Shown: piece by piece, positions 179-63,903 of the stretch
How the letters are laid out: every line of letters begins with the position of its first letter
Numbering within the stretch: position 1 is the first letter of the stretch
Assembly: GCA_963775955.1 (NCBI GenBank)
Contig: CAVZKT010000002.1
Location: 292,944 to 356,943, forward strand
DNA length: 64,000 bases
Direction of reading: 5' to 3'
Origin: Candidatus Moraniibacteriota bacterium
GTDB lineage: Bacteria; Patescibacteriota; Minisyncoccia; Moranbacterales; UBA2206
Position numbers and translations under genes: made by a program
Notes under the pieces: generated by a model
Database searches by the model: none
Told to the model about the DNA's origin: nothing
The model's input: only the letters and a program-made list of their open reading frames with translations

Positions 179-1282
179 ATGGCACATATAGCCAGCATCG
201 AAACAATTCCAATAGTTGTAAATATTTTGAAAATACTTTTTATCGCGCTGATCGCGTTCATGGTGGCGTTTTTGGCGACGCCGCTTCTGACAAACTTTTT
301 ATACAAGAAAAAGCTGGGCATAAAAATAAAAGAAAAATCGGTTGACGGCAAGCCGCTGCAATATGTGAACGTGCTTCATAAAGACAAAAGCGGAACGCCG
401 ACCATGGGCGGGATTCTGGTGTGGGCGACAGTGTTGATCTTGATTTTTGCCTCGCATTATCTTTTTCCGGTTATTGCCAGATGGACGAATACGAATTTTA
501 TCGCCCGGCTGGATTTTTTGAGCCGGGCGCAAACCTGGCTGCCCCTTTTCGCGCTGGTTACGGCTGGGGTTCTCGGGCTATGCGATGACTGGATGAGCGT
601 CCGCCGCGTCGGATCAAACAAGGGAGGCGGAATGCGTTTTGCCAAGCGTTTCGGCTGGCTGATTATTATTGCCGTTTTAGGCGCGTATTGGTTTTATTTC
701 AAGCTGGACTGGCATTCTATCCATGTTCCGGCAGTGGGCGCGTTTGATATCGGCTGGTGGTATATCCCGCTTTTTATTTTTGTTATTCTTTTTACCGCCA
801 TTTCTTCCAATGAAACCGATGGGCTGGACGGGCTTAACGGAGGAATACTTTTGACGGCCTTTGCCTCTTTCGCAATCATCGCGTTTGCGCAGAATAAAAT
901 GGATCTAGCCGCTTTTTGCGCGGCCGTTGCGGGGGCGCTGCTGGCCTTTCTCTGGTTCAATATTTATCCAGCGCGGTTTTTTATGGGAGACACGGGAGCG
1001 ATGTCGCTCGGCACGACCTTGGGCGTAGTGGCCCTGCTCACTAATTCCGTCCTGGTTTTGTTCATTATTGTTTTCATTTATTTTCTGGAATCAGGCAGCG
1101 TGGTTATTCAGCTCGCAAGCAAGAAGTTTTTGCATCGTAAAGTATTTTTAGCCGCGCCACTGCACCACCATTTTGAGGCCAAAGGCTGGCCGGAAACCAA
1201 AGTCACGATGCGCGCCTGGATTTTCACTTTCGTCACCGCCGGCATCGGCCTCATCATCGGGATTTTGGGGATGGGAAAGTAA
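179..1282 (+). CDS. mraY: phospho-N-acetylmuramoyl-pentapeptide transferase
   Basis: ORF 128..1282; polytopic membrane protein with MraY motifs NETDGLDGL, FMGDTGAMSLG, APLHHHFE; ATG at 179 taken as start. Confidence 0.9.
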   Translation: MAHIASIETIPIVVNILKILFIALIAFMVAFLATPLLTNFLYKKKLGIKIKEKSVDGKPLQYVNVLHKDKSGTPTMGGILVWATVLILIFASHYLFPVIARWTNTNFIARLDFLSRAQTWLPLFALVTAGVLGLCDDWMSVRRVGSNKGGGMRFAKRFGWLIIIAVLGAYWFYFKLDWHSIHVPAVGAFDIGWWYIPLFIFVILFTAISSNETDGLDGLNGGILLTAFASFAIIAFAQNKMDLAAFCAAVAGALLAFLWFNIYPARFFMGDTGAMSLGTTLGVVALLTNSVLVLFIIVFIYFLESGSVVIQLASKKFLHRKVFLAAPLHHHFEAKGWPETKVTMRAWIFTFVTAGIGLIIGILGMGK

Positions 1283-3045: not shown

Positions 3046-4158
3046 ATGAAAATTTATAATTTTATGAATCTAAAAAAGATCCAGGACGCGGATGTGGAAA
3101 ATAAAAAAGTTTTGTTGAGGATTGATTTTAATGTGGCATTGAAAAATCAAAACGCCAAGGAGAAATACAAAATATTTTCCAGCAAAGAAACGATAGATTA
3201 TATTTTATCCCAAAAGGGGGCGAAACTGGCCTTGGTGGGGCATCTCGGACGGCCGACAGCGCTCAAAAATTGCCTGATTTCCGGAGAAACATTGTCTCAT
3301 CGCGCGGCGGAGCAAATTGACCCGCAGTTTTCCTTAAAACAATTGGCCGACGATGTCGAGCGCATTTTGGAAATTAAAGTTAAATTTGTGCCGGATTGCG
3401 TCGGTGAAAAAGTGAAAGAATCCATTGAAAATCAAAAACCGGGCGAAGTCTTGCTCTTGGAGAATGTTCGCTTTTATTGCAACGATGAAAAAAATGATCC
3501 AGAATTTTCCGAAAGGCTGGCGGAAAATTTTGATATTTTTATCAACGACGCTTTTAGCGTCTGCCATAGGAATCAGGCATCAGTGACCGGACTGGCGAAA
3601 AATTTACCAAGCTACGCCGGTTTTTGGCTGCAAAAAGAAATTGAAAATCTGGACAAGGTGAAAAATAATCCGGAACATCCGGCGGTGGCGATCATCGGCG
3701 GAGCCAAAATTGAAACCAAGCTTCCTTTGATAAAAAAACTTGAGGACGAATACGACCATATTTTAGTGGGCGGCAAAATTGCCAATGAAGCGCTGGATCA
3801 GGGATTGAAATTTAGCGAAAAAGTGCTTTTCCCCGTTGACTTTTTAGGCGACCGGCTGGACATCGGACCAGAGACAATAGAAAAGTTTAAAAACATCATA
3901 TCCAGCGCCAAAACTATCGTGTGGAACGGCCCGATGGGAAAATTTGAGGAAAAGCCGTATGACATGGGAACAAATAAAATTCTTGAAGCCGTCGTGAGGA
4001 GTGGAGCTTTCATTTTAATGGGAGGCGGAGAATCAGTGGAAATCTTGGAAGGACAAAAGGCGATGGATAAAATTTCCTTCGTTTCCACCGGCGGCGGCGC
4101 CATGCTGGAATATTTAAGCGGCAACATCCTGCCGGGCATAGAAGCTCTAAAAACATGA
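3046..4158 (+). CDS. pgk: phosphoglycerate kinase
   Basis: LLRIDFNV, GHLGRP, LLENVRF, NDAFSVCHR, GGAKIETKL, WNGPMGKFE, STGGGAMLEYL. Confidence 0.95.
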   Translation: MKIYNFMNLKKIQDADVENKKVLLRIDFNVALKNQNAKEKYKIFSSKETIDYILSQKGAKLALVGHLGRPTALKNCLISGETLSHRAAEQIDPQFSLKQLADDVERILEIKVKFVPDCVGEKVKESIENQKPGEVLLLENVRFYCNDEKNDPEFSERLAENFDIFINDAFSVCHRNQASVTGLAKNLPSYAGFWLQKEIENLDKVKNNPEHPAVAIIGGAKIETKLPLIKKLEDEYDHILVGGKIANEALDQGLKFSEKVLFPVDFLGDRLDIGPETIEKFKNIISSAKTIVWNGPMGKFEEKPYDMGTNKILEAVVRSGAFILMGGGESVEILEGQKAMDKISFVSTGGGAMLEYLSGNILPGIEALKT

Positions 4159-4245: not shown

Positions 4246-5536
<1,291 letters not shown>

Positions 5537-5547
<11 letters not shown>

Positions 5548-7092
5548 AATTCCTACAATTTTAGTTATTCTGGATGGTTACGGCATTGCCCCGCCGGGAA
5601 AAGGCAACGCTGTCACTCTGGCCAAAACACCGGTTCTGGATCGGCTGTTTAAAATTTATCCTTCCACGACTTTATGCGCGACCGGAACTTGCGTAGGGCT
5701 TCCTGACCGCAAGATGAGCGGATCGGAAGCCGGGCATATGAATATCGGCGCCGGCAGGATTGTTCCTCAGGACTCAAAATACATATCAGACAGCATTAAA
5801 GATGGAAGTTTTTTTATGAATCCGGCGCTGGTGGGCGCGGTTGAACATGCTAAAACTTTTAATAGCGATTTTCACGTAATGGGGCTAATGGGTAATATGG
5901 ATAGTCCGCATAGCAATCCGGAGCATTTTCGCGCTATTCTGAAACTAGCCAAAAGCAATAACGTCAAAGAGGTTTACTGCCATTTGTTTACCGATGGCAG
6001 GGATTCGTATCCCAAAAGCGCTCTGGAGCACTTAAAATATTTCCGGCAAATTATGTCCGAAGAAGGAATTGGAAAAATCGCGACGCTTTCCGGCACGATT
6101 TTACGCCATGGATCGCGCCAAAAATTGGAAAAGGCTGACGCAGGCTTATGATGCAATGGTATTCGCCCGCGGCGAAAAAGCAGGTTCTGCCGAGGAGGCG
6201 ATTGAAAAAGCTTACAAAGACGATTTGACGGATGAGTATCTTCCGCCGACATTTATTGAGCAAGACGGAAAGCCTGTGGTGCAGATAAAAAAAGACGATG
6301 CAGTCATATTTTTTAATTGCCGATCCGACCGGGCGCGCCAATTCAGCAAACTCTTTATTGCAATCGATGAAAAAAGCATTTTGAGCGATGATATGCCAGT
6401 AATCGATAAAATAAAAAATTTATATTTCGTAACACTGACCGAATTCGGGCCGGGCCTCGATGAACACACGGCTTTTCCCGGGACATACTATTTCCGCGAC
6501 ATTGCCGATGGCAGCCGGAAAGTTGAAACAGCTTTATATCGCCGAATCGGAAAAATTCGCGCATGTCACCTACTTTTTAAACGGCGGTTATGCCGATCCG
6601 GTTGATGGCGAAGAAAGAATGATGATCAAATCTCCGGTCGTTGATTCTTACGCTAAAGCCCCGGAAATGTCGGCGCAAGAAATAACGGATGTGGTTGTGC
6701 GGAATATCCAAAATGATGTCTATGATTTTATAACCATCAATTATGCCAACGCGGATATGGTAGGGCACACCGGCGATTTGCCGGCCACAATCAAAGCCGT
6801 GGAAACATTGGACAGGCAAATAGAAATTTTAGAAAAAATTATTTCAGAAAAGGGCGGAAATCTGATTATAACGGCCGATCATGGCAACGCGGACGATATG
6901 GTGGATTTTGAATCCGATCAGCCAAACACATTCCATACCAAAAACCCAGTGCCGTTTCTGCTGGTGGGCGAGAAATTCAAGGATAAAAAATTACGCGACA
7001 AGGGGGTTCTGGGCAACATCGCGCCGACGATACTTGATATAATGGGAATAGAAAAGCCAAAGGCGATGAAGGGAAAATCATTATTGAGCTAA
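5537..7092 (+). pseudogene. gpmI: 2,3-bisphosphoglycerate-independent phosphoglycerate mutase with two +1 frameshifts
   Basis: ORFs 5537..6151, 6069..6605 and 6460..7092 (frames 2,3,1) together give a full iPGM (ILDGYGIAP, RFYAMDRAKNW, AESEKFAHVTYFLNGG, ITADHGNAD); shifts near 6093 (ggc-a-cga) and 6478 (cccggga). Confidence 0.85.
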
Positions 7093-12640: not shown

Positions 12641-12700
12641 ATTGATAAAGTCCGTGAAATATGGTAATATTTGAACAATAATAAGTAATTTTTAAAATTC

Positions 12701-12835
12701 ACCCTGTTAAATAAATTTTGCTTTGGCAAAATTAAGATTTGAAAAAAATAGGGGAATTAAAAGATGAATTGTAACTATTAATAAAAATAAGTTGTTTCTA
12801 TAAAAAGTATAGACTCAAATCTTATTTAACAGGGT
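12701..12835 (+). repeat. palindromic GTTAAAT-class element (ACCCTGTTAAATAA ... TTATTTAACAGGGT)
   Basis: 14-bp perfect terminal inverted repeat at 12701-12714 / 12822-12835; inner hairpins AATTTTGCtttgGCAAAATT and TCTATAaaaagTATAGA; ends 2 nt before the ATG at 12838. Confidence 0.7.
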
Positions 12836-12837
12836 AA

Positions 12838-13134
12838 ATGGAACAGCAAACACAACCGCAGCCGCCGGCCGGCCAAACTCCGCCAAGCGCTCCGGCTAAA
12901 AAATCCAATGTTTGGGTTTGGATTTTGGGCGGGTGCCTGATAATTATTCTCATAATTGGAATTGTAATGGCAGGACTTGCCTGGTGGGGAGCCAGAAAAG
13001 TCAAAAACGTCATTAAAGAGAACCAGCCGAAACTGGAAGAAATGCAGAAGGGAACTGAAGATATGCAAAAAGCCGCCGAAGAGTGGCAGAAGCAAATGGA
13101 AAAATTGAAGGACCAGGTGCCGGCAGCCGAGTAG
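12838..13134 (+). CDS. small single-pass membrane protein (hypothetical)
   Basis: 98-aa ORF; Pro/Gln-rich N-terminus, one hydrophobic helix, charged coiled C-terminus. Confidence 0.6.
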   Translation: MEQQTQPQPPAGQTPPSAPAKKSNVWVWILGGCLIIILIIGIVMAGLAWWGARKVKNVIKENQPKLEEMQKGTEDMQKAAEEWQKQMEKLKDQVPAAE

Positions 13135-22035: not shown

Positions 22036-22138
22036 CCCTGTTAGAGATTTTTCTGACCTGACTGGGTTAAAATAAAATTATTAATAAATTTTCGGGTATT
22101 ATTTTTAAAATAATAAACTTGTAAAATCTCTAACAGGG
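22036..22138 (+). mobile_element. 103-bp palindromic MITE-like element (CCCTGTTAGAGATTTT ... AAAATCTCTAACAGGG) splitting the porB start codon
   Basis: 16-bp perfect TIR; 4-bp direct repeat TGAA at 22032-22035 and 22139-22142; old ATG at 22031 overlaps the porA stop (ATGA); new GTG at 22138. Confidence 0.75.
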
Positions 22139-23068: not shown

Positions 23069-23254
23069 AGCCATCTGCCGGGATTGAACCGGCGGCCTGC
23101 GCGTGGAGTTTATCCGCCTTTGGCGGGAGTGCGCCGCCCCGCCAATATTTGAGCCCACGGTCGGGATCGAACCGACGACCTATGCGTTACGAATGCATTG
23201 CTCTACCAGCTAAGCTACGTGGGCGGGTAAATCTACCAACTGAGCTAAGATGGC
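23069..23254 (-). ncRNA. split tRNA-like gene (outer) hosting tRNA-Thr
   Basis: 5' GCCATCT-TA-GCTC-AGTTGGTAGA (23254 downwards) and 3' GCCGG-TTCAATC-CCGGC-AGATGGC-T (to 23069); the acceptor strands are perfectly complementary (7/7) but about 150 nt apart; no canonical anticodon arm found. Confidence 0.5.
23152..23224 (-). tRNA. tRNA-Thr (anticodon CGU)
   Basis: Manual cloverleaf: GCCCACG/CGTGGGC acceptor, GCTT..GAGC D-arm, anticodon loop TTCGTAA, T-arm GTCGG-TTCGATC-CCGAC; no encoded CCA. Confidence 0.85.
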
Positions 23255-23267
23255 AAATACAATAAGC

Positions 23268-23296
23268 AGTATAATTAAAAACCATTAAAAAATCAA
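23268..23296 (-). promoter_or_regulatory. promoter of the nested-tRNA locus
   Basis: Minus strand TTGATT (23296-23291), 17-nt spacer, TATACT (23273-23268); 13 nt upstream of the outer 5' end. Confidence 0.55.
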
Positions 23297-23381
23297 CTAA
23301 GAATAACATTCTGACATTCTGCAGAATATAAGAATGTCCGTAATTTGTAAATTTGTAATTAATTTGTATTTTTGTAAAATT

Positions 23382-27573: not shown

Positions 27574-27664
27574 AAAACCCCTCCTTTTGCAATGGAGCAA
27601 AGAACCTATAGATTATCGATAAAATCGATTAATTATAGGCGAAGCTTCAATCAAGGAGGGTTTT
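27574..27664 (+). other. structured intergenic region (candidate 3' UTR element or sRNA)
   Basis: AAAACCCCTCCTT (27574-) pairs with AAGGAGGGTTTT (-27664), enclosing TTTGCaatggaGCAAA and CCTATA..ATCGATaaaATCGAT..TATAGG. Confidence 0.35.
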
Positions 27665-27706
27665 CTTGTTCAGTAACTGGTTAAGTAATAGTTTAAGCAA
27701 TAAAAA

Positions 27707-27730
27707 ACAGCGTGCTAGGCACTGTTTTTT
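27707..27730 (+). terminator. intrinsic terminator candidate
   Basis: ACAGCGTGC-tag-GCACTGT followed by TTTTTT. Confidence 0.55.
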
Positions 27731-27737
27731 ACATCCA

Positions 27738-27766
27738 TTGATTTTATACCGGTTTTACGGTAAGAT
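27738..27766 (+). promoter_or_regulatory. promoter of the nested-tRNA locus
   Basis: TTGATT 27738-27743, 17-nt spacer, TAAGAT 27761-27766; 21 nt upstream of the outer 5' end. Confidence 0.55.
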
Positions 27767-27787
27767 GAAGGACAGCTTCAAAAGTAT

Positions 27788-27993
27788 TGGGGAGTAGCCA
27801 AGCGGCCCCGCACCAAAGCGAAGTTTGGTGTGGGGTAAATAAGGCACGAGGTGGCGCCTGTCCCGCCTAAAGTTCCGAGATCGTCTAACGGTAGGACGGC
27901 AGGTTCTGGTCCTGCTAATCTTGGTTCGAATCCAAGTCTCGGAACTTTATGCGGGAGTCCATGCATGCGGGGGTTCGAATCCCTCCTCCCCAA
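27788..27993 (+). ncRNA. split tRNA-Gln-like gene (outer) hosting tRNA-Gln(CUG)
   Basis: 5' TGGGGAG-TA-GCC-AAGCGG and 3' GGGGG-TTCGAAT-CCCTC-CTCCCCA-A; acceptor 7/7 with U1-A72; 12-bp hairpin CCCCGCACCAAA/TTTGGTGTGGGG in the D-loop; no canonical anticodon arm found. Confidence 0.5.
27874..27944 (+). tRNA. tRNA-Gln (anticodon CUG)
   Basis: Manual cloverleaf: TCCGAGA/TCTCGGA acceptor (U1-A72), D-arm GTCT..GGAC, anticodon arm GCAGG-TTCTGGT-CCTGC, T-arm CTTGG-TTCGAAT-CCAAG. Confidence 0.85.
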
Positions 27994-27994
27994 C

Positions 27995-28726
27995 ATGGAA
28001 AAAATAACTTACCCCATCCGCATTAATCGCTATTTGGCGATGAATAATTATTGCAGCCGCCGGGAAGCGGATGATTTGATTATGAAAAAAATTGTTAAAA
28101 TAAATGGCAAGATTGCAAAACTCGGCGAGAAAGTCAATGAGGGCGACAAGGTGGATGTGGATACCGAGACGAAAAATAAACTGAAAAAATATTTATATTT
28201 CGCTTACAACAAGCCGATCGGTATTGTAACGCATACGCCGGAAGCGGGGCAGACGGAAATTAAAAAAATCGCCGGGCTTCCCGAGGATGTTTTTCCGGTC
28301 GGGCGCTTGGACAAAAAATCCCATGGCTTGATTATTCTGACGAATGACGGGAGAATAACCGACAAACTTTTGAATCCCGCTTTTGAACATGAAAAAGAAT
28401 ATATCGTAAAAGCCAACAAGCTGGTCACCAATATTTTTTTGAAAATTGCTGGTGGCGGAATACAGCTTGAAGATTTTAAAACCAAACCTTGCCAAATTAA
28501 AAAAACCAGTGAAAAAACTTTCCGGATAATTCTGACTGAAGGCAAAAAACACCAAATCCGGCGCATGTGCACGAATTTCGGTTTTGAAGCGGTAGATCTG
28601 AAAAGGACGCGGATTATGAATGTGGAGTTGGGCTCACTGCCGGCCGGGCAAAAAAGAGAAATGAAGGGGGAGGAATTGAAAGATTTTTTAAATAATTTGG
28701 GAATTAAACATGGCGCTGACCGATGA
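27995..28726 (+). CDS. pseudouridine synthase, RsuA/RluB family
   Basis: S4 domain (RINRYLA...) plus catalytic GRLDKKSHGLIILTNDG; ATG at 27995, 1 nt after the outer tRNA-like 3' end. Confidence 0.85.
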   Translation: MEKITYPIRINRYLAMNNYCSRREADDLIMKKIVKINGKIAKLGEKVNEGDKVDVDTETKNKLKKYLYFAYNKPIGIVTHTPEAGQTEIKKIAGLPEDVFPVGRLDKKSHGLIILTNDGRITDKLLNPAFEHEKEYIVKANKLVTNIFLKIAGGGIQLEDFKTKPCQIKKTSEKTFRIILTEGKKHQIRRMCTNFGFEAVDLKRTRIMNVELGSLPAGQKREMKGEELKDFLNNLGIKHGADR

Positions 28727-29810: not shown

Positions 29811-30008
29811 ATGGAAAAAAATCTGGCACTGCCGCTCATTTTAGCTGTGATCTGGACAATTCCCTGGAAGGGTGCGGCGCTTTGGAAAGCGGCCCGCAGG
29901 GGACAAAAAGTGTGGTTTATATTAATGCTCGTTTTAAATACGCTGGCAATTTTGGAAATACTTTACATTTTTATTTTCTCAAAAAGAGACGACGGACAAC
30001 GGGGATAA
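29811..30008 (+). CDS. small two-TM membrane protein (DUF5652-like)
   Basis: 65 aa; WKGAALWKAARRGQKVWFILMLVLNTLAILEILYIF. Confidence 0.6.
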   Translation: MEKNLALPLILAVIWTIPWKGAALWKAARRGQKVWFILMLVLNTLAILEILYIFIFSKRDDGQRG

Positions 30009-30023
30009 TTTCTAGAGAAAAAT

Positions 30024-30731
30024 ATGTATTGGTTTTATTTGATTATTTTTATCCTGGCAGTTCTAGTTCCGGATGTAGTCCGCACGAATTTGTATTTTTT
30101 GACGGAAACCCGCCTGGAAGAACTCTTGATTTTTCTGCTTGGAATGGCCGGCTTTTTAATTTTTATTTTTAAAGAACACCAGCTTTTTATCCAAAAAGAA
30201 GAAAAGGTAAAAAGCCAAAAACGGCTCAGGCAAACAGCCAAAGACTTGGTTGATTCGTACAGTTATATCGGGGAAGTCAATCGCAAGATGGATATCCTGA
30301 TGCAGGTCGGACTGGGACTTTCCGACCGGTCGGCCATTAATAAAAATAAAGAAAAAGAAATTTACCATACGATTATTGACGCGGCCAATTCGCTGATGAG
30401 GGCAAAATTTTCCCATTTACGGTTCGTGGATATGAAAAGCCGGCGAACGAGAAAAGAAATAATCACCGGCGATGGTTGCAATAAAATAAAAAATTCGGAA
30501 CTCGCAGAAATGGGGGATAATGTCAATATAAGAAAGAAAAATGGCTATCTGGTGGCCGCTTCATTTAAGCAGATTGATAATGTTAAGGGATATCTTATTG
30601 TTGAAGAATACAATGAACTGGAAGCGGAAAACGTCAATAATCAGGAAATTTTGAAATTTTTGGCCACCCAAGCTCTTTTTCTCTTTATTTATATTTCCAG
30701 GGGTGAACAGGCAAGTTTACCGAATAAATAA
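30024..30731 (+). CDS. membrane-anchored hypothetical protein
   Basis: 235-aa ORF; two N-terminal TM helices then a soluble domain. Confidence 0.5.
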   Translation: MYWFYLIIFILAVLVPDVVRTNLYFLTETRLEELLIFLLGMAGFLIFIFKEHQLFIQKEEKVKSQKRLRQTAKDLVDSYSYIGEVNRKMDILMQVGLGLSDRSAINKNKEKEIYHTIIDAANSLMRAKFSHLRFVDMKSRRTRKEIITGDGCNKIKNSELAEMGDNVNIRKKNGYLVAASFKQIDNVKGYLIVEEYNELEAENVNNQEILKFLATQALFLFIYISRGEQASLPNK

Positions 30732-33029: not shown

Positions 33030-34054
33030 AATTATAAAATTGTTATCGGATCCACATCAATAATCCAGCCGTTTGGCAAGGATTTCAATATTTCTTTAAA
33101 ATTTTCGGGGATATTCCCTGTTATTTTCAGAAGGATTTGCTTTCGGAAGCGGCCTCTTATTTTTGAAATAAAAGCATCCTGGGGTTCTGACAGCGTTATA
33201 TTTTTTATGGCAGTTTCCTTTAAGAGTTTGTAAATTCTTTTTGTTTCAATATCTGTTTTTTTAAGGTTGAAATTCTGAAAAATCAGTTTAATTAATTTTC
33301 CAAACGGCGGGAGGCAGAGGTTTTTTCTTTCTTCAATTTCTTTCGCGTAAAATTCTTCCAGATTTTTTTCCGCAACTAATTTGAAAAATTTTTGTTCCGG
33401 CGCAAAAGTTTGAATAAGAACAATCCCTGGAAATTTGGCGCCTGGGCGGCTCGTTCTTCCGGCAACCTGTAAAATTAGCTGAAAAGCCCGTTCGGCAGTT
33501 GAAAAGTCTGGCAAAGACAGCATATTGTCTCCATCTATAATACCAATGAGCGCCAAGCTTGGCAAATCCCAGCCTTTGGAAATCATCTGGGTGCCAATTA
33601 AAATATCAATCTCTTGATTCATAAATTTCCGGTATAAGTTTTCCTGCGCATCTTTGCCTTGCATGGACTGGCTGTCGGCGCGGGCAAGTTCTGGCTTCCG
33701 GAAACAAGCCGGCAATTTCTCTTTCAATTTTTTGAGTTCCAAGGCCGATATTTTGGAAACTAATGCCTTTGCAATTCGGGCACTGCGGAGTGATGGATGT
33801 TTTGTAGGTGCAATGAACGCAACGATAAATTCCGGAGTTTTCATAAACCAGCGCGCGGTCGCAGCGCGGGCATTTTAAAACTGTCTTGCAATCGGCGCAA
33901 ACGGAAAAAGCGCTCATTCCCTGGCGGTTTACGAATAAGATCGTCTGCAGTTTATTTTTGAGCGCGTAGGCGATTTCCGACTGCAGTTTTTTACTAATTG
34001 TGGAATAGTTTCTGAATCCAGCGTTCTTTTTTCATATCAACCAACTCAATAATA

Positions 34055-34088
34055 GAATTTGAAATTTGAAATTTGAAATTTGAAATTT
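34055..34088 (-). repeat. tandem heptanucleotide repeat (plus strand GAAATTT x4 plus a degenerate unit) in frame in priA
   Basis: gaattt gaaattt gaaattt gaaattt gaaattt; translated ..SNFKFQISNS.. Confidence 0.9.
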
Positions 34089-34605
34089 GTTTGGAGTTTG
34101 TTATTTGCTGATTTAATTCAGGTAATTTTAAAAGTTGATATTTATTTTTTTGGGCATTATAATAAGCATTCAATGCTTGGCGTGGCTGACCCGCGTATAA
34201 TTTTGGCCTTGTGGATTTCAGCCAGTTTTTCCGCCACTTTCCGCGCGTCATAACGCGGATTCATATCCCATTGTTTGAAAGAGGCATCCTGCTCTTCGTC
34301 AATAACTATCAGTTTAAGATTCTGAAAAGGCGCGAAAACAGCCATGCGGGTACCGATGATTATTTTTGCCTCGCCGGATTTTATCTTTCGCCAGTTTTCG
34401 CAAAGCTCGCCTTTGGATATTTTACTGTGGATTACTGCAATTTCTTCCGGCTTAAAATGCGCGCCGTATCTTTCAATTGCCTGCGGGGTCAATGTCAATT
34501 CTGGCAGAAGTATTAAAAACTGTGCGTCCTTGTTTTTTTCTTTCAGTTTTTTGATCGCGTGTATATAAACCTCAGTTTTGCCGGATCCGGAAGGACCATA
34601 AAGCA

Positions 34606-34640
34606 GAAATTTTGAATTTTGAATTTTGAATTTTAAATTT
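34606..34640 (-). repeat. tandem heptanucleotide repeat (plus strand GAATTTT x3 plus degenerate flanks) in frame in priA
   Basis: gaaatttt gaatttt gaatttt gaatttt aaattt; encodes LKFKIQNSKF immediately before the Walker A. Confidence 0.9.
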
Positions 34641-35169
34641 ATTTTTTTTGCAATTATATCAACTGCACTAGTTTGTTCTTTAGTTAGTTTGATATTTTTT
34701 GTGTTTTGTTTGTGAATATTTGTGTTTTGTATTTTGTGTTTTTGTTTAACTCTCTTTGGAAGAAAGGATTTTAGGACAACTCCAAGAGGGGAGAGATAGT
34801 AATCTGAAATAAATTGGGCGAGTTCCAGTTGCTTTTTGTCTAAAAAATTTTCTTCCAAAACTTTTTCTATTTTTTTAAGCTGGATATTTCCAAAACGGCG
34901 GAAATCATTTCTATTGTCCAGCACTATGCCCTCAACATTTCTTTTAAAAAGGGGAATGGAAACCAGTGTTCCCGGAGAAAGTTTTTGGTCATGCAAATAC
35001 GAAAACGACTGGCTTCCGGAAAGAGGAAGGCGGGTTATGGGGGCGACATTGATGATAATTTTTGAGAGAAATTTTCGCATGGCTTTAGTTTAACAAAGTT
35101 TTGCCATACATAACAGGGATTACTTTTCACCGCCTTGAAAATATGCCAAAAATGGGCTAATCTAGGGAT

Positions 35170-35712
35170 ATGAAACGCAAAATTTTTATCAGTATAAATT
35201 TAGCCGACAGGGACAAAAAAAGGCTTATCCGGGCCACCGAAAAATGGCAAGATTTGCCGGTAAAGTGGATTAAAGAGGCAAATCTGCATATTACCCTGGT
35301 TTTTTTGGGGCACGTTGCGGATGAAATTATGATTGAAATTTGCGAAAAAGTCCGCGGGGCGGTAGAAAATGTTGAAATTTTTGATTTGGAATTTGAGACG
35401 ATCGGGCTTGGCCCAGACGCGAAGAGTCCAAAAATAATCTGGCTTAGCGGCCGAGCCGATGAAAATTTAAGAAGTTTGCATGAAAAAATAGAAAAAGCCC
35501 TAGGAATGTATATTTCCAGCAAAAAGTCTTTTCGACCGCACATCACCTTGGGCAGGATTCGCGGGCGCAAGTGGGAAGCGCTCGCGCCAAAGCCGGAGAT
35601 TTTGGAGAATTATAATTTGATTGTTTCCGTTGAATCGGCGGACATTATGGCCAGTAAATTTGAAAATAAGGGGCAGGAATATACAATTATTGAGTCATGT
35701 CCGCTCAAATAA
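35170..35712 (+). CDS. thpR: 2H phosphoesterase / RNA 2',3'-cyclic phosphodiesterase (LigT/ThpR)
   Basis: Two HxTx motifs: HITLVFLG and HITLGR. Confidence 0.85.
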   Translation: MKRKIFISINLADRDKKRLIRATEKWQDLPVKWIKEANLHITLVFLGHVADEIMIEICEKVRGAVENVEIFDLEFETIGLGPDAKSPKIIWLSGRADENLRSLHEKIEKALGMYISSKKSFRPHITLGRIRGRKWEALAPKPEILENYNLIVSVESADIMASKFENKGQEYTIIESCPLK

Positions 35713-36479: not shown

Positions 36480-36486
36480 ACATATG

Positions 36487-36620
36487 CCCGGTAGTGAAAT
36501 TTCGACTGACTTTTCTAAAAAGTCCAAAAGCATAGCGTCATTTATTTTAGTAAATATTTAAATATTAATTAAATTTCTACGTATGTAAATTATTACAAAT
36601 GTCGAAATTCTACTACCGGG
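36487..36620 (+). mobile_element. 134-bp palindromic MITE-like element (CCCGGTAGTGAAATTTCGAC ... GTCGAAATTCTACTACCGGG) splitting a start codon
   Basis: 20-bp TIR (18/20); 4-bp direct repeat TATG at 36483-36486 and 36621-36624; ATG present on both sides. Confidence 0.7.
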
Positions 36621-36621
36621 T

Positions 36622-47386: not shown

Positions 47387-48670
47387 TTACCCTTGATTTT
47401 TAGAAGAAATTTCCTGTTGGATAACTTCCAGCGCTTTGTCCAGCTGCGGGTCGCGGTTGTTGTCAAAATCTTCCTGGGTTAAATCCACTTCAATATTGGG
47501 AGTTATGCCCTCATCCATTATGTAGTCGCCATTAGGCGTCATCCATTTGTCCACAGTGATTTTTACGCTGGAATTTCCCGGCAAATCAATAAGTTCCTGG
47601 ACAGAGCCTTTGCCGAATGATTTCTTGCCGATGAGCTGGACGGCGCGGTTGTCCCGCAGGGCTCCGGCCAAAATTTCCGAGGCGCTGGCGCTTCCCTCAT
47701 TAATCAGGACTACCACCGGCAAAGAGCTAAGCCTGTCCCCGCCCGATGTATATAAGTTGTCTTTTTTGCCGGTGTTGTCTTCCTCGCTGACAACCAGCTC
47801 GCCCTTGGGGATCATCCGACTGGCTACGCTTACGGCCTTATCCAAAAATCCGCCCGGATTGTTGCGCAAATCTAAAACAATTCCTTTGGCGCTTTGGGAA
47901 ATTATTTGATTTGCAGCTGCGTCAAACTCCTTGGCAGTATCGTCGCCGAATTTGGTTATTTTCAGATAGGCGATGCCATCAGGCTTGAATTCCAGCTCCA
48001 CGCTTTTTATGGAAATAGTGTCACGGACAATGGAAATTTCCCTGACTCCATCCTCGCCCAGGCGCAAAACTGTCAATTTAACCTCTGTTCCTTTTTTTCC
48101 GCGGATCAGATCCACTGCTTCATCAATGGTGGTGTCAGCGGTTGTTTTGTCGCCGACTTTGAGGATTTTATCGCCGGCCCGCAAACCCGCTTTGGCGGCC
48201 GGAGAATCGGCCAGCGGAGCAATTACGGTCAAGATATTATCTTTGATTCCCAGTTCGGCGCCAATTCCTTCAAAGCTGCCTTCCAAATCTTGGGAAAAAG
48301 ATTTTGTTTCCGCCGGATCAAAAAAAGTTGAATACGGGTCATTGGTGGCGCGCAGCATTCCTCTGATGGCGCCATAAACCAATTTTTGGGCGTCCAGGGA
48401 ATTTTTATCCACATATTTTTCTTTTAGCAGATCCCAAACTTTCCAGAAAAGCGAAAAATCAACCGAATTTTGCGGAGAATTTTTATTGGTAATTTGCGTT
48501 TGAGCGAGCGGGAAGGACCGATTATCAGCGGGGGAATTTTTTCCTCTGGAATAACCCAGCCAAAAACTCCCGACTAAGAGAAAAACAAAAAAGAAAATAA
48601 ACAAATACTTATGCAGTAATTTGCGATTATTATCCAAAGACCGTGTCTGTTTTAGAGTTTCTTCGTCCAC
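47387..48670 (-). CDS. ctpA: S41 C-terminal processing peptidase (PDZ-containing)
   Basis: PDZ (AGLRAGDKILKVG) plus S41 core (GSASASEI..GKKSFGKGSVQ); start taken as GTG 48670-48668, regenerated by the element insertion (the track TTG start at 48688 lies inside the element). Confidence 0.85.
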   Translation of the reverse strand: MDEETLKQTRSLDNNRKLLHKYLFIFFFVFLLVGSFWLGYSRGKNSPADNRSFPLAQTQITNKNSPQNSVDFSLFWKVWDLLKEKYVDKNSLDAQKLVYGAIRGMLRATNDPYSTFFDPAETKSFSQDLEGSFEGIGAELGIKDNILTVIAPLADSPAAKAGLRAGDKILKVGDKTTADTTIDEAVDLIRGKKGTEVKLTVLRLGEDGVREISIVRDTISIKSVELEFKPDGIAYLKITKFGDDTAKEFDAAANQIISQSAKGIVLDLRNNPGGFLDKAVSVASRMIPKGELVVSEEDNTGKKDNLYTSGGDRLSSLPVVVLINEGSASASEILAGALRDNRAVQLIGKKSFGKGSVQELIDLPGNSSVKITVDKWMTPNGDYIMDEGITPNIEVDLTQEDFDNNRDPQLDKALEVIQQEISSKNQG

Positions 48671-48769
48671 CCCGTTAGAGTTTTCCAAAATTACAGGAAA
48701 TAATATTGGAATTGTAAAAAAATAATTAAGCGTAATCCCGTTTCAAATTTAATAAAAACTCTAACGGGG
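48670..48769 (-). mobile_element. 100-bp palindromic MITE-like element (CCCCGTTAGAGTTTT ... AAAACTCTAACGGGG) splitting the ctpA start codon
   Basis: 15-bp perfect TIR; 4-bp direct repeat (minus strand TGGA; plus strand TCCA at 48666-48669 and 48770-48773); old ATG at 48774-48772 directly follows the upstream TAG. Confidence 0.75.
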
Positions 48770-48774
48770 TCCAT

Positions 48775-49589
48775 CTAATTATGCGCGGGCAAATCTTTTC
48801 CCGCGTATTTTAGAAAATATTTAATCGCGCTTTGAATATGCAGGCGGGTTAATCTGTTAAAAAGTATCAGATTCAACATCCCCTTGCCGGCCGATCCCCG
48901 GCGATGGTAATGATACATTTTAGCTTCCGGATAATAAATTACTTTATATCCGTTTTCCCAAAATCTTCGGCACCAGTCCGTGTCTTCCATATACATTTGA
49001 AATCGTTGGTCAACCAGGCCGACTTTTTCAATGGCTGATTTTTTAATCATCATGGCTGAACCCATCAGCCAGTCAACCTCGCGGACTTTCCTGATGGTCA
49101 AAATCTTTCATTAAAAACCGGTCCAGATGTTCTTTGGCGAAAGGGCAATTTTCCCAGAATCGTCCGGCGGTACAAAATAGTAAACGGGAGAAAGAAAGCG
49201 AAAGCAGGACGGCTGGAATGTTTCATTGAAATTCAGAAGTTGCGGACCGATAATTCCCGCTTCCGGATGATTTTGGCTGTAATTCAAAAGACTTCCAATC
49301 GAATCTTTTTTGACAATAATATCGTCATTTAAAATTAAAATATATTCTCCCTGGCTCTTTTCAATTCCGGCATTAACCTCGCCTCCGAAGTGTAAATTTT
49401 TAGCGGAAGGCAGAAATATAATTTCCGGATAATCCTCTTCCATCATTAAGCGCTACTTTTTCTTCAGTTTCACTGTCAGCCACGATTATTTCATAATCCG
49501 AAAGACGTGATATTTTTTTTGATCGAATCAATGCAAACTCTGAGAAGCTCCGGATTCTTATAGCTGGTGATTATGATCGAAAGCTCCAT
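48775..49589 (-). pseudogene. GT2 glycosyltransferase with multiple indels
   Basis: MELSIIITSYKNPELL.. / DYEIIVADSETEEK / ..ILNDDIIV.. / ..FLMKDFDHQ / KVREVDWLMGSAMMI..EDTDWCRR spread over several frames; one shift lies in an 8-nt homopolymer (about 49515-49522, read 5'->3' on +: tttttttt). Confidence 0.75.
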
Positions 49590-50878: not shown

Positions 50879-50989
50879 CCCCGTTAGAAGTTTTGGAAAG
50901 TTCTTTTTAATATCTAAAATATAAAGGTGAAGCCGCTTCGCTTAAATGCTTTTCTTAGGCATTATCTTTAAAATGAACTTCTAACGGGG
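50879..50989 (-). mobile_element. 111-bp palindromic MITE-like element (CCCCGTTAGAAGTT ... AACTTCTAACGGGG)
   Basis: 14-bp perfect TIR; 4-bp direct repeat (minus strand TTGA; plus strand TCAA at 50875-50878 and 50990-50993); one copy supplies the TGA stop of the GT4 gene, the other the -35 TTGACA. Confidence 0.7.
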
Positions 50990-55269: not shown

Positions 55270-56550
55270 ATGGCTAAAAATAAGCAAAAAGTTTGTGTTA
55301 TCGGGCTGGGCTATGTGGGTCTGCCTTTGGCGATTCGGGCGGCCGAACGAGGTTTTGACGTGTATGGCCTGGATACCGACCGGAAAAAGGTAAAAATAAT
55401 AAACAGCGGGAAGAGCCCTTTTGCGGATGAATATGTCAGCGAAAGAATTACTAAGTTCAAATTAAAGGCTACGGCGGATAAAAAAATCATAAAAAAAGCT
55501 GACATTATTTTAATTTGCGTTCCCACGCCGGTGGATGAAAAATTTTATCCAATTTTGAATTTAGTGATCAGCGCTTCAAAAGCCGCAGCCCAAAATCTGA
55601 AAAAAGGCGCGCTGGTTGTTTTGGAATCAACAGTGAATCCCGGGGTGAGCGAAGAAATTGTCAGGCCGATTTTTGAAAAGGAAGGACTGAAAGTCGGCCG
55701 GGATGTTTTTATCGCCCACTGTCCGGAAAGAATAAATCCCGGCAGACTCCAGGTGGAATGTGACGAATATTCCCAGAGTGATCGGATCATTTGATAAAAA
55801 GGGACTTTCTAAGGCTAAAAAGTTTTATGAAAAAATCATTGATGCCCAAATTATGCCTATGGATTCCATTCGCGAAGCGGAGGCTGTTAAAATTATGGAA
55901 AATTCCTTCCGCGACATAAATATCGCCTTTGTGAACGAGTTGGCGAAATCTTTTGATAAAATGGATATTGATATCACTAATGTTATCCGGGGCGCTTCAA
56001 CCAAGCCCTATGCTTTTATGGCGCACTGGCCAAGCCGCGGCGTTGGCGGACATTGCATTCCAGTTGATCCGTATTATCTGATTGAAAAAGCCAAGGAAAA
56101 TGACTTTGACCACAAATTTTTGCGCACGGCGCGCAATATCAATAACAGCATGCCTCAATACACAGTCGATCTTTTGCAGGCCAAAATGAATGAAATAAGA
56201 AAGTCCCTGAAGGGCGCGAATATCGGAATACTGGGCCTTTCCTATAAGGCCGATGTGGGAGATTTGCGCGAAAGTCCGGCTTTTAAAATAATTGAAAAAT
56301 TAAAAGAACGAGGGGCGCTTCTCATATTTTTGATCCTTATATTCCGGAAATGTCCACCGTAAAAAATATTCAGGAACTATTGAAAAAATCAGAAGCCATC
56401 GTTTTAGTGACAAATCACAAAGAATTTGAACAGATTTCTCCCGAAGAATTTAAGCGCAGGGGCATCAAGGTTATTATTGACGGAATGAACGCGCTGGACA
56501 AGGAAGCGATTAAAAAATGTGGTATAATTTATAAAGGGATTGGGCGATGA
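55270..56550 (+). pseudogene. UDP-glucose/GDP-mannose 6-dehydrogenase-family protein with two frameshifts
   Basis: VCVIGLGYVGLPLA; ..NIPRVIGS..; GGHCIPVDP; ..IFDPYIPE..; ORFs 55270..55794, 55760..56362 and 56350..56550 (+1 then -1). Confidence 0.8.
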
Positions 56551-60967: not shown

Positions 60968-61070
60968 CCCCGTTAGAGTTTTTACAAAGCTGACTGGGTA
61001 AAATAAATAAGTAATATATTTTTCAAGTTTTATTATTTAAAGTAATAAGCTTGTAAAAACTCTAACGGGG
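60968..61070 (+). mobile_element. 103-bp palindromic MITE-like element (CCCCGTTAGAGTTTTTACAA ... TTGTAAAAACTCTAACGGGG) splitting a start codon
   Basis: 20-bp perfect TIR; 4-bp direct repeat TGAA at 60964-60967 and 61071-61074; shares the internal CTGACTGGGT(T)AAAATAAA with the porB copy. Confidence 0.75.
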
Positions 61071-61447: not shown

Positions 61448-62590
61448 ATGAATGAGCTAAAAACCGAAGGAAATGTAAAAAAGAAGATTTTACTGGTCAC
61501 CCGCCCCATTGCTCCGCCGTGGGATGAGGCTTCCAAAAACTTCGCTTATAACTTGGCGATGAATCTGCCGGACTTTGAATTCGGTCTGCTTACAAACGGA
61601 ATTTTGCGAAATTTGCCGAAAAATATTATTCAACATCCGATTTATACTTCCAATAAGAACAATTTTATTCAAAAGCTGGGACTAATTATAAATCTGAGAA
61701 AAATAAGCCGCCAGTTTGAAATAGTCCACTGTTTGTTTACGCCGGCTAAAGTCAATTCTTTTTTGTTAAATAACTTGTTAAGCAATAAAAAATCGAAAAC
61801 TATTCAAACCATTGCCACTCTTCGCGAAGATTTGTATTCTGATAATGAATTAAGAAAACTGGTGTTTGCCGATAAAATTGTTACTTATTCAAAATATGCC
61901 AAAGAAAAATTAAATAATCTCGGCCTGAATAATATTGAGCAAATTTATCCGGGAATTGATCTGGCTTATTACTCTCCTGCTCCCAAAGATGCGGAACTGC
62001 TCAGAAAGTATGAATTAAAAATCACGGACTTTATCGTTACTTTTCCTGGCGAATACACCCGCTTGGGCGCAGCTGATGATATTGCCAACATGATTTTGAA
62101 GTATTTAGATGTATTTAAACAAAACAGCATCAAGTTTATTCTGGCCTGCCGGCTGAAAAATACCGGAGATATTCTGAAAAAAGAAGAAATAATGGAAAAA
62201 ATAAAAAACAAGGGAATTTCTGACATAGTTGTTTTTATTAATACTTTTTCGGATATGGCCAAGCTTTATAATCTAAGCGACGCGATTATTTTTCCGGTGC
62301 GCGAGATGTATGGAAAATTTGATGTGCCGTTGGCCGCCATTGAACCGATGGCCTGCGAAAAACCGGTCATTATTTCCAATCTGCCGATACTTTCGGAATT
62401 CGCAAGGCCGGAACATTCTGTTATCATTGAAAAAGGCAATATTGAACAGTTGAAAAACGCGATTTTAGATTTACATGATAATCCTGATAAGAGAGCGGCC
62501 ATTGGAAAAAATGCCAGAAAATTTGCGGCCGAAAATTTTGACATAAAAAAGGCGGCTCAAAATTATAGGGAAATTTACAATGGATTATAA
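61448..62590 (+). CDS. GT4-family glycosyltransferase
   Basis: 380-aa ORF; GT-B fold features; ..AAIEPMACEKPVII.. Confidence 0.7.
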   Translation: MNELKTEGNVKKKILLVTRPIAPPWDEASKNFAYNLAMNLPDFEFGLLTNGILRNLPKNIIQHPIYTSNKNNFIQKLGLIINLRKISRQFEIVHCLFTPAKVNSFLLNNLLSNKKSKTIQTIATLREDLYSDNELRKLVFADKIVTYSKYAKEKLNNLGLNNIEQIYPGIDLAYYSPAPKDAELLRKYELKITDFIVTFPGEYTRLGAADDIANMILKYLDVFKQNSIKFILACRLKNTGDILKKEEIMEKIKNKGISDIVVFINTFSDMAKLYNLSDAIIFPVREMYGKFDVPLAAIEPMACEKPVIISNLPILSEFARPEHSVIIEKGNIEQLKNAILDLHDNPDKRAAIGKNARKFAAENFDIKKAAQNYREIYNGL

Positions 62591-63903
62591 CTTTGAAAAT
62601 TTATCTCCATTCAGAAAAGAAATAAAAACCGGAATTATGAAAGTGCCGGCAATTTTATTTTCCTCTGAAAATACCTTGTTGCGCGGAGAAACATTGAAAC
62701 AAATTGAAAAAATAGCCGAAAACCAAAAACTTTTCCATCACATCGCCGTTTTGAGCGACGCGCATCCAAAGCCGAATATCATCAATCCCACCGGGTCGGT
62801 AATTGCTTCGGAAAAAGATATTATTCCGGAAGCCATTGACGCTGCTCCCAACTGCGGCATGCGCGTAATTTTAACAGATCTTTCCGGGCAGGAGCTGACA
62901 AAAGAAAAAATATCGAAACTATTTACCGACCTCCGCTTGGCTATTCCTTCTAAAAAACTCATAGGCGCTCGCATATCTTTCCAAAAAGTATTGGAAATAT
63001 TCAGAAATGGAAGCTTGGCGCTGAAAGATACCTTCAATTTCCGCACCGTGAATGAAATTGAAAATACTTACAAAAATGGCAATTTTTTCGGAGCTGACAA
63101 TTTGCCGTTGGAAAAAGACATTTTGGATTCACTGCCTAAATCAATTATTCGCATCGGCAAATACCGTCTGGGGCTTCTGGGCGCGACTAAAAGCCATTTT
63201 CTTTGTTTGATGCGCGTCGCTTTAATCAAGGACGACCAAATGGCAAAAATGCTTGGCATCAAGCAGGGGCAATATGTTTTTTTTATGCATACGGGTTCCA
63301 GTATTGTCGGACGCTATGCCGCTTCACTTTTTACTTCGCGCAAGATAAAAAGTTTGTCGCAAAGAATAATTCTGTCAGTGTTAAAATTGACAACGTCAAA
63401 AGTTAAGCCGAATAATCTCGAAGCCGTTTTTCGCGCCGTCAGCAATTATGGTTTTGCCAACCGGACGCTTATAACGCACAAACTTGATAAGGCTCTGGAA
63501 AAAGTTTTTGGGCGCCAGGATAATCTAGAACTTCTCTATGATGCTCCGCATGTTTATTTTGACCGGGAAAACCACTTTGAAAAGGAAGTTGTTGATCCAT
63601 CGAAACGGCGCGAACCGCGCCTATGGGCCGCAAAAAATGAGCGGGCATGGCGTATTTCAAAAAACCGGCGAGCCGGTGCTGATTGCGCCTTTTGCCGGCG
63701 GATTCGGCTATATCGGTGTGGGCACGGATGAGAACACGGAAACTTTTTTTTCCGCCAACCATGAAGTTGGAAAAATTAAAGATTTAGATATTCAGCCTGG
63801 CCAATATGAAAGTTATGCGGCCGGTGTTATCAAAGAAATGGAGGAAAATAAAATTATCAAACTTGTCGCCAAATTAGAAACAATTAAAACGCTAACTTAC
63901 TAA
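62580..63903 (+). pseudogene. divergent RtcB-family RNA ligase homolog with one +1 frameshift near 63590
   Basis: AVLSDAHPKP, APNCGMRVI, FFMHTGSSIVG, NYGFANR, LLYDAPHVYFDRENH, then IHRNGANRA, GEPVLIAPFAGGFGY, SANHEVGK in the frame of ORF 63538..63903. Confidence 0.65.

Follow-up and report, generated by a model that had tools for sequence, protein, structure and literature searches.

How does a complete tRNA-Gln(CUG) gene come to lie inside a second tRNA-Gln-like gene that is itself split, and can the outer gene still be a tRNA? The question is raised by positions 27738-27993 of a 64,000-nucleotide stretch of contig CAVZKT010000002.1 (assembly GCA_963775955.1) from a Candidatus Moraniibacteriota bacterium, hereafter called the window. 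A preliminary description, drawn from the letters of the DNA alone, had reported this nesting and left three readings side by side, namely a tRNA with a tRNA-bearing intervening sequence, a tRNA-like scaffold for processing, or a disrupted tRNA. All the features that it listed were found by sequence inspection at the positions that it gave. The outer "split tRNA" is a once-ordinary classical tRNA-Gln gene that was broken by two small palindromic insertion elements, one empty and one loaded with a tRNA. In both tRNA genes of the window, and in the tRNA-Gln genes of several relatives, a complete tRNA of matching identity sits inside a palindromic insert; the interrupted outer genes, which we call shells, have no usable anticodon loop and decay where the event is old, and the live tRNA and its arms are conserved. 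With a probability of roughly 0.6, we read this as the overwriting of resident tRNA genes by hairpin-armed cassettes that carry a tRNA with the same anticodon, the outer halves being dead shells and not a spliced split tRNA. It looks like a recurrent and hitherto undescribed way of overwriting tRNA genes in bacteria with tiny genomes.

The composite tRNA-Gln locus consists of the following parts:

27738..27766, plus strand: promoter of the composite locus, with -35 TTGATT (27738-27743), a 17-nt spacer and -10 TAAGAT (27761-27766), followed by a 21-nt leader
27788..27805, plus strand: 5' part of the outer tRNA-Gln shell, with acceptor strand TGGGGAG (27788-27794), TA, and D stem/D loop GCCAAGCGG (27797-27805)
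27806..27839 (34 nt), plus strand: empty palindromic element in the shell D loop, between G19 and U20, CCCCGCACCAAA-GCGAAG-TTTGGTGTGGGG (27806-27835) plus TAAA
27840..27852, plus strand: middle part of the shell, with the 3' side of the D loop and stem (TAAGGCA), the 5' strand of the anticodon stem (CGAGG) and U32
27853..27958 (about 106 nt), plus strand: anticodon-loop insert, with GGCGCCTG, arm TCCCGCCTAAAGT (27861-27873), the inner tRNA, arm ACTTTATGCGGGA (27944-27956) and GT
27874..27944, plus strand: inner intact tRNA-Gln(CUG), 59.5 bits against Rfam RF00005 (gathering score 29); called by ARAGORN at 27874-27945
27959..27993, plus strand: 3' part of the shell, with CCATG, variable loop CATGC, T arm GGGGGTTCGAATCCCTC, acceptor strand and discriminator
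27969-27985, plus strand: shell T arm GGGGG-TTCGAAT-CCCTC, with a 5-bp T stem and loop GGTTCGAATCC
27986-27992, plus strand: shell 3' acceptor strand CTCCCCA, complementary to TGGGGAG at 7/7 positions; discriminator A at 27993

Taken together, these parts make 27788-27993 a classical tRNA-Gln gene that is interrupted twice and has an acceptor stem of 7/7 pairs, a D arm and a T arm. Deletion of 27806-27839, that is, the hairpin and its TAAA, brings back a standard tRNA-Gln D arm (GCCAAGCGGTAAGGCA), and the rejoined pieces 27788-27805 and 27840-27846 are identical over 25/25 nt to the 5' end of an uninterrupted tRNA-Gln gene at a related locus (L090); the outer RNA therefore goes back to a genuine tRNA-Gln gene of the classical type. 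Downstream of U32 (27852), the outer anticodon loop is replaced by GGCGCCTG, the first arm, the inner tRNA and the second arm, past which the outer gene picks up again as GT-CCATG-CATGC and the T arm. By inspection, CCATG at 27959-27963 is a possible partner of CGAGG, with 4/5 pairs. The minimum free energy (MFE) fold of 27788-27993 is the nested structure itself, with -100.1 kcal/mol, z = -6.4 and 0/200 shuffles as stable, and exceeds chance by far.

The inner gene (27874-27944) has all the marks of a canonical bacterial tRNA, namely the RF00005 score, a call by a tRNA finder and a 7-nt anticodon loop; its place within the split gene, as first reported, is thus borne out by ARAGORN, Rfam and the MFE fold. 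Inner tRNA and Gln shell are of different sequence types. When the inner tRNA was aligned with the tRNAs of relatives at this locus, 7/21 pairs had changed on both sides and 99% of cells were paired, compared with 91% in shuffled alignments (0/500 shuffles reached the observed value); across these loci the live tRNA evolves under tRNA-type constraint. A codon usage count showed that CAA and CAG are used equally. With regard to annotation, tRNA finders report the inner gene only and the shells go unnoticed, gene callers run open reading frames (ORFs) through the shells, and the deposited RluF protein begins within the shell.

As for the inserts, the D-loop hairpin at 27806-27835 was found as reported, with a stem of 12-13 bp (CCCCGCACCAAA/TTTGGTGTGGGG). 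The arms of the anticodon-loop insert pair as a 13-bp helix (12 pairs) in continuation of the inner acceptor stem, and arms and stem together make up an inverted repeat of 20 nt with 95% complementarity (27861-27880 / 27937-27956), in agreement with the coaxial extension proposed at the outset. The GGTGG/CCGCC helix, for which an alternative pairing of the CCGCC tract had also been put forward, is present and is kept in a related locus (L089) with one G-C to G-U change, but nothing indicates a role as a switch.

Of the structural parts of a tRNA, the outer gene keeps the acceptor stem, the T arm and, after removal of 27806-27839, the D arm; a 7-nt anticodon loop with an anticodon is present neither directly nor after excision. 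We generated 520 single-excision variants, in each of which one contiguous piece was removed between 27848-27867 and 27940-27965 together with the D-loop hairpin. ARAGORN called a tRNA in 397 of these variants and a tRNA-Gln in none, and did not call the outer gene itself either with or without intron mode, which speaks against the outer gene, in its present state, as a spliced or intron-containing tRNA and upholds the initial failure to fold a canonical anticodon arm. An Rfam search of 27600-28100, at gathering thresholds and at E <= 10, found the inner tRNA alone, with no group I or II intron family and no known RNA family for the structure as a whole; the inserts, of 34 and 106 nt, contain no ribozyme core. 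Nor was a bulge-helix-bulge found, by inspection, at the insert boundaries: the inserts are self-contained perfect hairpins, with boundaries at the hairpin foot and not at 3-nt bulges flanking a 4-bp helix, and no EndA-type endonuclease was found among the 57 ORFs of the window. Two further candidates were discarded, namely a tmRNA or two-piece tmRNA, of which ARAGORN finds none, and a surviving outer anticodon in the CTG at 27858-27860, where L089 has TTTAT.

Two enzymes that act on RNA ends are encoded in the window, an RtcB RNA ligase of the tRNA-splicing ligase family (62580-63728, plus strand) and a LigT-like 2'-5' RNA ligase/phosphoesterase (35170-35709, plus strand). Judged from their families, they might matter for RNA repair or for the splicing of interrupted tRNAs, but bacteria commonly encode both, and the presence of RtcB proves nothing.

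The site varies among relatives. In the window, the gene order is prfB, ftsE, ftsX, the composite locus, a gene for an rluF-like pseudouridine synthase (ATG at 27995, 2 nt past the shell end) and obg; the closest RluF homologues belong to candidate phyla radiation (CPR) bacteria of the Parcubacteria/Moranbacteria type, the best outside the source genome being 88% identical. Our comparison covers about ten related loci, in which the Gln locus was taken as orthologous on the strength of the ftsX region upstream, promoter, leader and the ...A|CATGG junction that leads into rluF. The promoter seen in the preliminary description scores only 8/12 against the consensus and is absent from the list of a consensus promoter scan, but its TTGATTTT..TAAGATG pattern and a 19-21 nt leader are conserved at six related loci (L001, L003, L083, L084, L085 and L089).

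Four forms of the locus were found. In the ordinary form, present in L001 (GCA_041645535.1), L003 and L085, a 72-nt tRNA-Gln(CUG) has the same start and end as the outer gene of the window, and the junction of tRNA end and CATGG is the same as that of the window shell. L082 and L086 have no tRNA at this position. In L083 and L084, a complete tRNA-Gln(CUG) between arms CCCCGCACCAAATTAT and CAAATTGGTGCGGGG+TAAA is placed between TTCG and AATCC of the T loop (57/58) of an older, drifting copy of that tRNA, whose D and anticodon region was lost via a deletion common to both genomes. These arms are the same as those of the empty D-loop element of the window (CCCCGCACCAA/TTGGTGCGGGG + TAAA). Between the two genomes, the relic pieces are identical at 43/53 positions, the arms with TAAA at 35/35 and the inner tRNA at 72/72, i.e., 107/107 for inner tRNA plus arms, compared with 74% identity at third codon positions of rluF; the shell acceptor stems are decaying, with 5-6/7 pairs left, and rluF is intact. 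It had been anticipated that an intact ordinary tRNA at this site in related genomes, with no conservation of the split halves, would speak against a functional split gene, and this is largely what the relatives show: the tRNA is intact in L001, L003 and L085, and the halves are decaying in L083 and L084.

The fourth form, in L089, is window-like. A homologous insert, a hairpin ending in GGGG-TAAA, occupies the same D-loop position as 27806-27839, and the anticodon-loop insert has the same 5' junction (..AGGT|GGCG..CCCGCYTAAAGT followed by the tRNA), but the shell belongs to the other tRNA-Gln type. On the 3' side L089 resembles L083, with whose arm the 3' arm of the window's anticodon-loop insert also aligns, and the inner acceptor stem of L089 has a G4.G69 mismatch. 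L089 also contains, at about 660-680 (minus-strand reading), a perfect hairpin of a third kind, CCTGCCT-ACCGGC-AGGCAGG, inside the D stem of its shell tRNA-Gln; shells appear to accumulate hairpin insertions.

At L090 (1-110), a classical tRNA-Gln lies divergently upstream of rluF behind a similar promoter (TTGATTTTAT..GATAAGAT), in a relative that is 76% identical; the contig ends within the anticodon stem of this tRNA. This arrangement and the inverted context of tRNA-Thr in the window versus L088 suggest that promoter-tRNA units may have been inverted or shuffled in the clade. No full-length classical tRNA-Gln was found near rluF at L095. A scan of genome contigs with the RluF protein returned mostly distant homologues without a tRNA, a metagenome scan with the promoter pattern found three loci only, and a protein-database search for further composites with the spurious antisense ORF that crosses the composite gave only partial generic matches. 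Scans of viral contigs for the inner tRNAs and the element arms yielded nothing relevant; they did show one unrelated tRNA-Gln(CUG) that flanks a prophage.

Neither the recurrence in relatives in different forms nor the nesting of the neighbouring tRNA-Thr had been noticed in the preliminary description. The only other tRNA in the 64 kb, tRNA-Thr(CGU), is also nested, and its parts are as follows:

23268..23296, minus strand: promoter-like TTGATT (23296-23291), 17-nt spacer and TATACT (23273-23268) upstream of the tRNA-Thr composite, by inspection
23069..23254, minus strand: shell tRNA-Thr(CGU) enclosing an intact tRNA-Thr(CGU), with shell pieces 23254-23232, 23137-23130 and 23103-23069
23231-23138, minus strand: cassette TTTA-CCC-[inner tRNA]-CAAATATT-GGCGGG, inserted at position 23/24
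23152..23224, minus strand: inner intact tRNA-Thr(CGU), called by ARAGORN; 64.4 bits with Rfam
23127-23109, minus strand: small hairpin CCCGCCAAAGGCGG+ATAAA in the shell anticodon loop, by sequence inspection

Read on the minus strand, the composite starts with shell GCCATCTTAGCTCAGTTGGTAGA, TTTA-CCC, the inner tRNA, CAAATATT-GGCGGG and shell GCGGCGCA, and continues with CT, the hairpin CCCGCCAAAGGCGG-ATAAA, CTCCA and shell CGCGC-AGGCC-GCCGGTTCAATCCCGGC-AGATGGC-T. The three shell pieces are identical at 65/66 positions to an ordinary tRNA-Thr(CGU) gene (L088 8801-8874), and the Thr shell is on this ground unambiguously a resident gene. The single difference, GGCAGA to GGTAGA, is found at the junction, where the shell agrees with the cargo. 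Acceptor stem (7/7, GCCATCT/AGATGGC) and T arm of the shell are intact, and its anticodon loop reads CT..CTCCA versus TTCGTAA, with 4/7 bases changed in addition to the small hairpin. The cargo has the same anticodon as the shell but a different sequence (acceptor GCCCACG versus GCCATCT), and its 3' flank CAAATATTGGCGGGG resembles the L083 arm CAAATTGGTGCGGGG. No co-oriented gene lies behind this composite. Within the 64 kb, 4/5 T-loop motifs fall in the two composites, compared with 0.5 expected by chance. The likeness of the Gln anticodon-loop junction to the Thr composite (GGCGC..TCCCGCC.AAAG) is only weakly significant (p ~0.02) and is taken as a hint.

The hairpins, treated at first as features of this locus, belong to a polymorphic family of palindromic elements. 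Its members have CCCC[CG]..GGGG or CCCGCC..GCGGG arms plus TAAA/TGAA (TTYA on the other strand) and no ORF, and occur in the window and in L003, L083, L084, L085 and L089. One copy lies in L085 at 215-315, downstream of ftsX, and is absent in L083; others lie between two genes in L085 (3355-3418, related to the D-loop element of the window) and in L083 (about 3446-3513) and are absent at 29990-30025 of the window. In L003 (2518-2624), a palindrome of about 100 nt, with arms CCCCCACACCCAC/GTGGGTGCGGGGG and TTTA on both sides, sits in frame after codon 7 of the rluF-like gene and adds 32 residues (protein P0003, 275 aa), a situation reminiscent of the palindromic elements that lie in coding sequences of Rickettsia. 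Across their interior, the L003 and L085 copies are homologous, in opposite orientation; the likeness of the L003 element to the tRNA shell (ATAAGCACGAAGGTGG in L003, ATAAGGCACGAGGTGG in the window) was discarded as coincidence, the element being homologous to this L085 copy. Repeats at the element flanks are TTTA/TTTA in L003, and TAAA/TGAA and CAAA/TGAA in L085. A palindrome with an end motif, without an ORF and with polymorphic copies at unrelated loci resembles miniature transposable elements bounded by inverted repeats (MITEs) and repetitive extragenic palindromic (REP) sequences.

A second family, clearly transposon-like and of about 100 bp, is present in the window (CCCCGTTAGAG...CTCTAACGGGG, terminal inverted repeats CCCCGTTAGAG(T/A)TTT..). 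Its copies, at 22036-22138, 48670-48769, 50879-50989 and 60968-61070 of the window and at L088 9820-9920, have clean 4-bp target-site duplications (TGAA, TCCA, TCAA and TGAA in the window, TTCA in L088). Two longer inverted-repeat pairs (12697-12839 and 36484-36623) are possibly related to this family.

In the proposed course of events, cassettes would either be mobile or be carried about by recombination, and would come to rest in the resident gene for the cognate tRNA. Their insertion there would be harmless, because the cargo replaces the lost function. The shell would then be a dead remnant and the inner gene the working tRNA, transcribed from the resident promoter in a longer precursor and presumably freed from it through RNase P and 3'-end processing. 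The arm helix, of about 20 bp with the acceptor stem, probably isolates the fold of the inner tRNA from the shell fragments or offers a site for double-strand cleavage. The three independent loaded inserts, in the Gln anticodon loop, the Gln T loop and the Thr D stem, all lie in cognate tRNA genes; because random insertion would not yield 3/3, we infer a targeted route to the cognate gene. A stronger version, which we hold only tentatively, is that a self-complementing, transposase-less hairpin cassette specifically overwrites the resident gene of the same anticodon, is hard to lose and spreads among CPR genomes, be it by transposition or by recombination in which the conserved halves of tRNAs act as homology arms. 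Over repeated rounds, tRNA gene sequences would be turned over, a process of which the two tRNAs of the window and the tRNA-Gln loci of the relatives would be snapshots.

Several observations weigh against overwriting by cassettes. No target-site duplication was found at the tRNA-embedded copies, there is no further copy of the CCCC-arm family within the 64-kb window, and a Pfam search of its 57 ORFs found no transposase, integrase or Y1/RAYT-type gene (RAYT, REP-associated tyrosine transposase). The conservation of the arms is beyond neutral expectation, and so they would be expected to do something. Relatives have the other tRNA-Gln type at the very position where the window has a Gln shell of the classical type, and overwriting does not explain this exact swap; the 3' half of L089 may, from its sequence, be a recombinant or an assembly chimera. 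Finally, both window shells are pristine outside the insertions and the scrambled anticodon loops (7/7 acceptors, T arms, 65/66 for Thr), which fits a recent event and fits continued selection on the shell equally well.

Such selection is what an unlikely alternative calls for, in which the shell is kept as a processing scaffold, an acceptor-stem/T-arm minihelix cut by RNase P and RNase Z that defines the ends of the precursor and, at the Gln locus, also sets the 5' end of an almost leaderless rluF mRNA. It would account for the intact acceptor stems and T arms of both window shells next to disrupted D and anticodon regions, for a shell 3' end that adjoins the CATG of rluF just as that of the ordinary tRNA in relatives does, for an rluF without a Shine-Dalgarno sequence in any relative, and for arms that change more slowly than the neutral rate. 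It is at odds with the Thr composite, behind which no co-oriented gene lies, with the decay of acceptor stems in L083 and L084 despite an intact rluF, and with L082 and L086, where rluF is presumably expressed without any upstream tRNA. We consider it very unlikely that the outer RNA is truly a tRNA with introns or in split form, the inserts being cut out at the RNA level and the halves joined, for instance by RtcB, or used as a two-piece tRNA. The insertion sites in or beside loops (D loop 19/20, anticodon loop, T loop 57/58), the exact restoration of canonical loops on removal of the D-loop and T-loop inserts, and the RtcB and LigT-like enzymes encoded in the window speak for it; on the other side, no excision gives back the Gln anticodon loop, that of the Thr shell is rewritten, one Thr and one L089 insertion lie within a D stem, the shells decay in L083 and L084, and neither a bulge-helix-bulge nor a match to a group I or II intron model was found. 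Of the three initial readings, that of a disrupted tRNA fits the comparative data and the other two do not.

We give some weight, although we hold it doubtful, to an origin of each nest in situ and without any mobile cassette: empty palindromes would land in tRNA genes, and breaks at the hairpin tip would be repaired, in a templated or microhomology-mediated way, by copying a tRNA gene from the sister chromosome, a paralogue or taken-up DNA. The tRNA is always at the centre of the palindrome, and in L083 and L084 the inner tRNA shares its sequence type with the shell and does not differ from the ordinary L085 gene. Short identities at the boundaries of cargo and resident (..AT|tRNA|CA.. in L083; AAAGT|tRNA|AC in the window) and the junction position of the one changed base in the Thr shell point the same way. 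Against this, the two cargos of the window are very different in sequence from their shells, one junction is common to the window and L089 in different backbones, and the similar 3' arms of the Thr and Gln cargos suggest that ready-made units have moved; to our knowledge, templated repair of this kind has not been documented for tRNA genes. An assembly artefact, in which strain variants of a tRNA gene were concatenated in metagenome assembly, is barely credible. The apparent frameshifts in eno, gpmI, priA and ugd show that base-level quality in the window is imperfect, and the inner acceptor stem of L089 is mismatched. Nested forms with the same arms nevertheless occur in assemblies from independent samples and pipelines (the window; L083 and L084 from Logan; L089 from JGI), the junctions hold unique sequence that is not tRNA, and no k-mer common to shell and cargo is long enough for an assembler to be misled.

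Overwriting by cassettes shares features with several known systems. In common with REP sequences, bacterial interspersed mosaic elements (BIMEs) and MITE-like repeats, the elements are short, non-coding, GC-rich imperfect palindromes with an end tetranucleotide (here TTYA/TAAA), with copies at unrelated loci that are present or absent between relatives, one of them in frame (L003 rluF), and with no internal transposase. They differ in that the element here encloses a tRNA gene and sits in a tRNA gene with a replacement copy, for which we know of no report among REPs and MITEs, and in that neither a RAYT or other transposase in the window nor a target-site duplication at the tRNA-embedded copies was seen. 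Mobile insertion cassettes (MICs), such as that mobilized in trans by IS231 in Bacillus cereus, are bounded by inverted repeats, have no transposase and carry passenger genes. Inverted-repeat arms, a passenger and the missing transposase are common to both; here, the passenger is a single 72-nt tRNA in a unit of about 100 nt, the site is the cognate tRNA gene, and mobilization is putative. Phages and integrative conjugative elements (ICEs) with tRNA genes as integration sites span kilobases and encode their integrase; only the 3' part of the tRNA is duplicated, and the target gene stays uninterrupted. The likeness lies in the tRNA gene as target and in an element that supplies what keeps the tRNA working, but in the window a whole second tRNA lies inside the first, rather than a 3' repeat, no integrase is encoded and att-type direct repeats are missing.

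Interrupted tRNA genes are familiar from other lineages. Archaeal disrupted tRNAs carry non-canonical introns or are split or permuted, and depend on a bulge-helix-bulge motif and an endonuclease. In Patescibacteria, tRNA genes carry group I introns of 184-894 nt (PMC13011429). Inserts in D, anticodon and T loops, several per gene, in small genomes, are shared with both; theirs are removed to give a functional tRNA, whereas here no anticodon can be restored, the insert itself holds the functional tRNA and there is neither ribozyme nor bulge-helix-bulge motif. Intervening sequences of bacterial rRNA have long flanking helices and are excised by RNase III. Here, too, flanks within a longer transcript form a long helix (arm helix plus acceptor stem, about 20 bp), but cleavage would have to be assumed, and the enclosed RNA is a tRNA and not a discarded spacer. 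Full-text literature searches on the nesting of tRNA genes, on MITEs within them and on RtcB in Patescibacteria turned up no equivalent, in line with the initial statement that no bacterial counterpart has been described.

If true, tiny cassettes, each with a tRNA of its own, would replace tRNA genes of these reduced genomes in situ, a hitherto undescribed mode of gene turnover that possibly involves selfish spread. Counts of tRNAs, used as a measure of genome quality, can be misread at such loci. They would also offer a system for asking how long helices that flank a tRNA affect processing by RNases P, Z and III, whether cognate genes are targeted at all, and for what reason tRNAs of variant sequence but unchanged anticodon are swapped in; pressure from tRNA-cleaving toxins as a driver of the swap is speculation.

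Some minor observations concern the rest of the window. Five conserved genes appear split into two ORFs by frameshifts or stops, namely those for enolase (eno, 4273-5544), phosphoglycerate mutase (gpmI, 5537-7089), priA (33035-35080, minus strand), UDP-glucose dehydrogenase (ugd, 55270-56359) and a family-2 glycosyltransferase (48778-49446, minus strand). These are either assembly indel errors or pseudogenes, and such apparent frameshifts mean that single-base details of the window warrant caution.

Between ftsX and the tRNA promoter lies a conserved, strongly structured segment (27578-27665), also present in L083 (about 1150-1290), L001 (about 2220-2365), L085 (about 380-525) and L089. It has a closing helix (CCCTCCTT/AAGGAGGG), inner helices and a variable apical hairpin, followed by a T-run (fold z = -4.8). 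No Rfam family matches it, and from its predicted fold it may represent a small RNA that has escaped annotation, or else an elaborate terminator. Directly upstream of tRNA promoters at different loci, a long AT-rich palindrome, ACATTCT.ACATTCT..AGAATGT.AGAATGT, was found at about 23300-23337 of the window (minus strand, Thr locus) and, at the Gln locus, in L003 (about 2228-2262) and L085 (about 1228-1262); it could be a terminator, an operator or another repeat.

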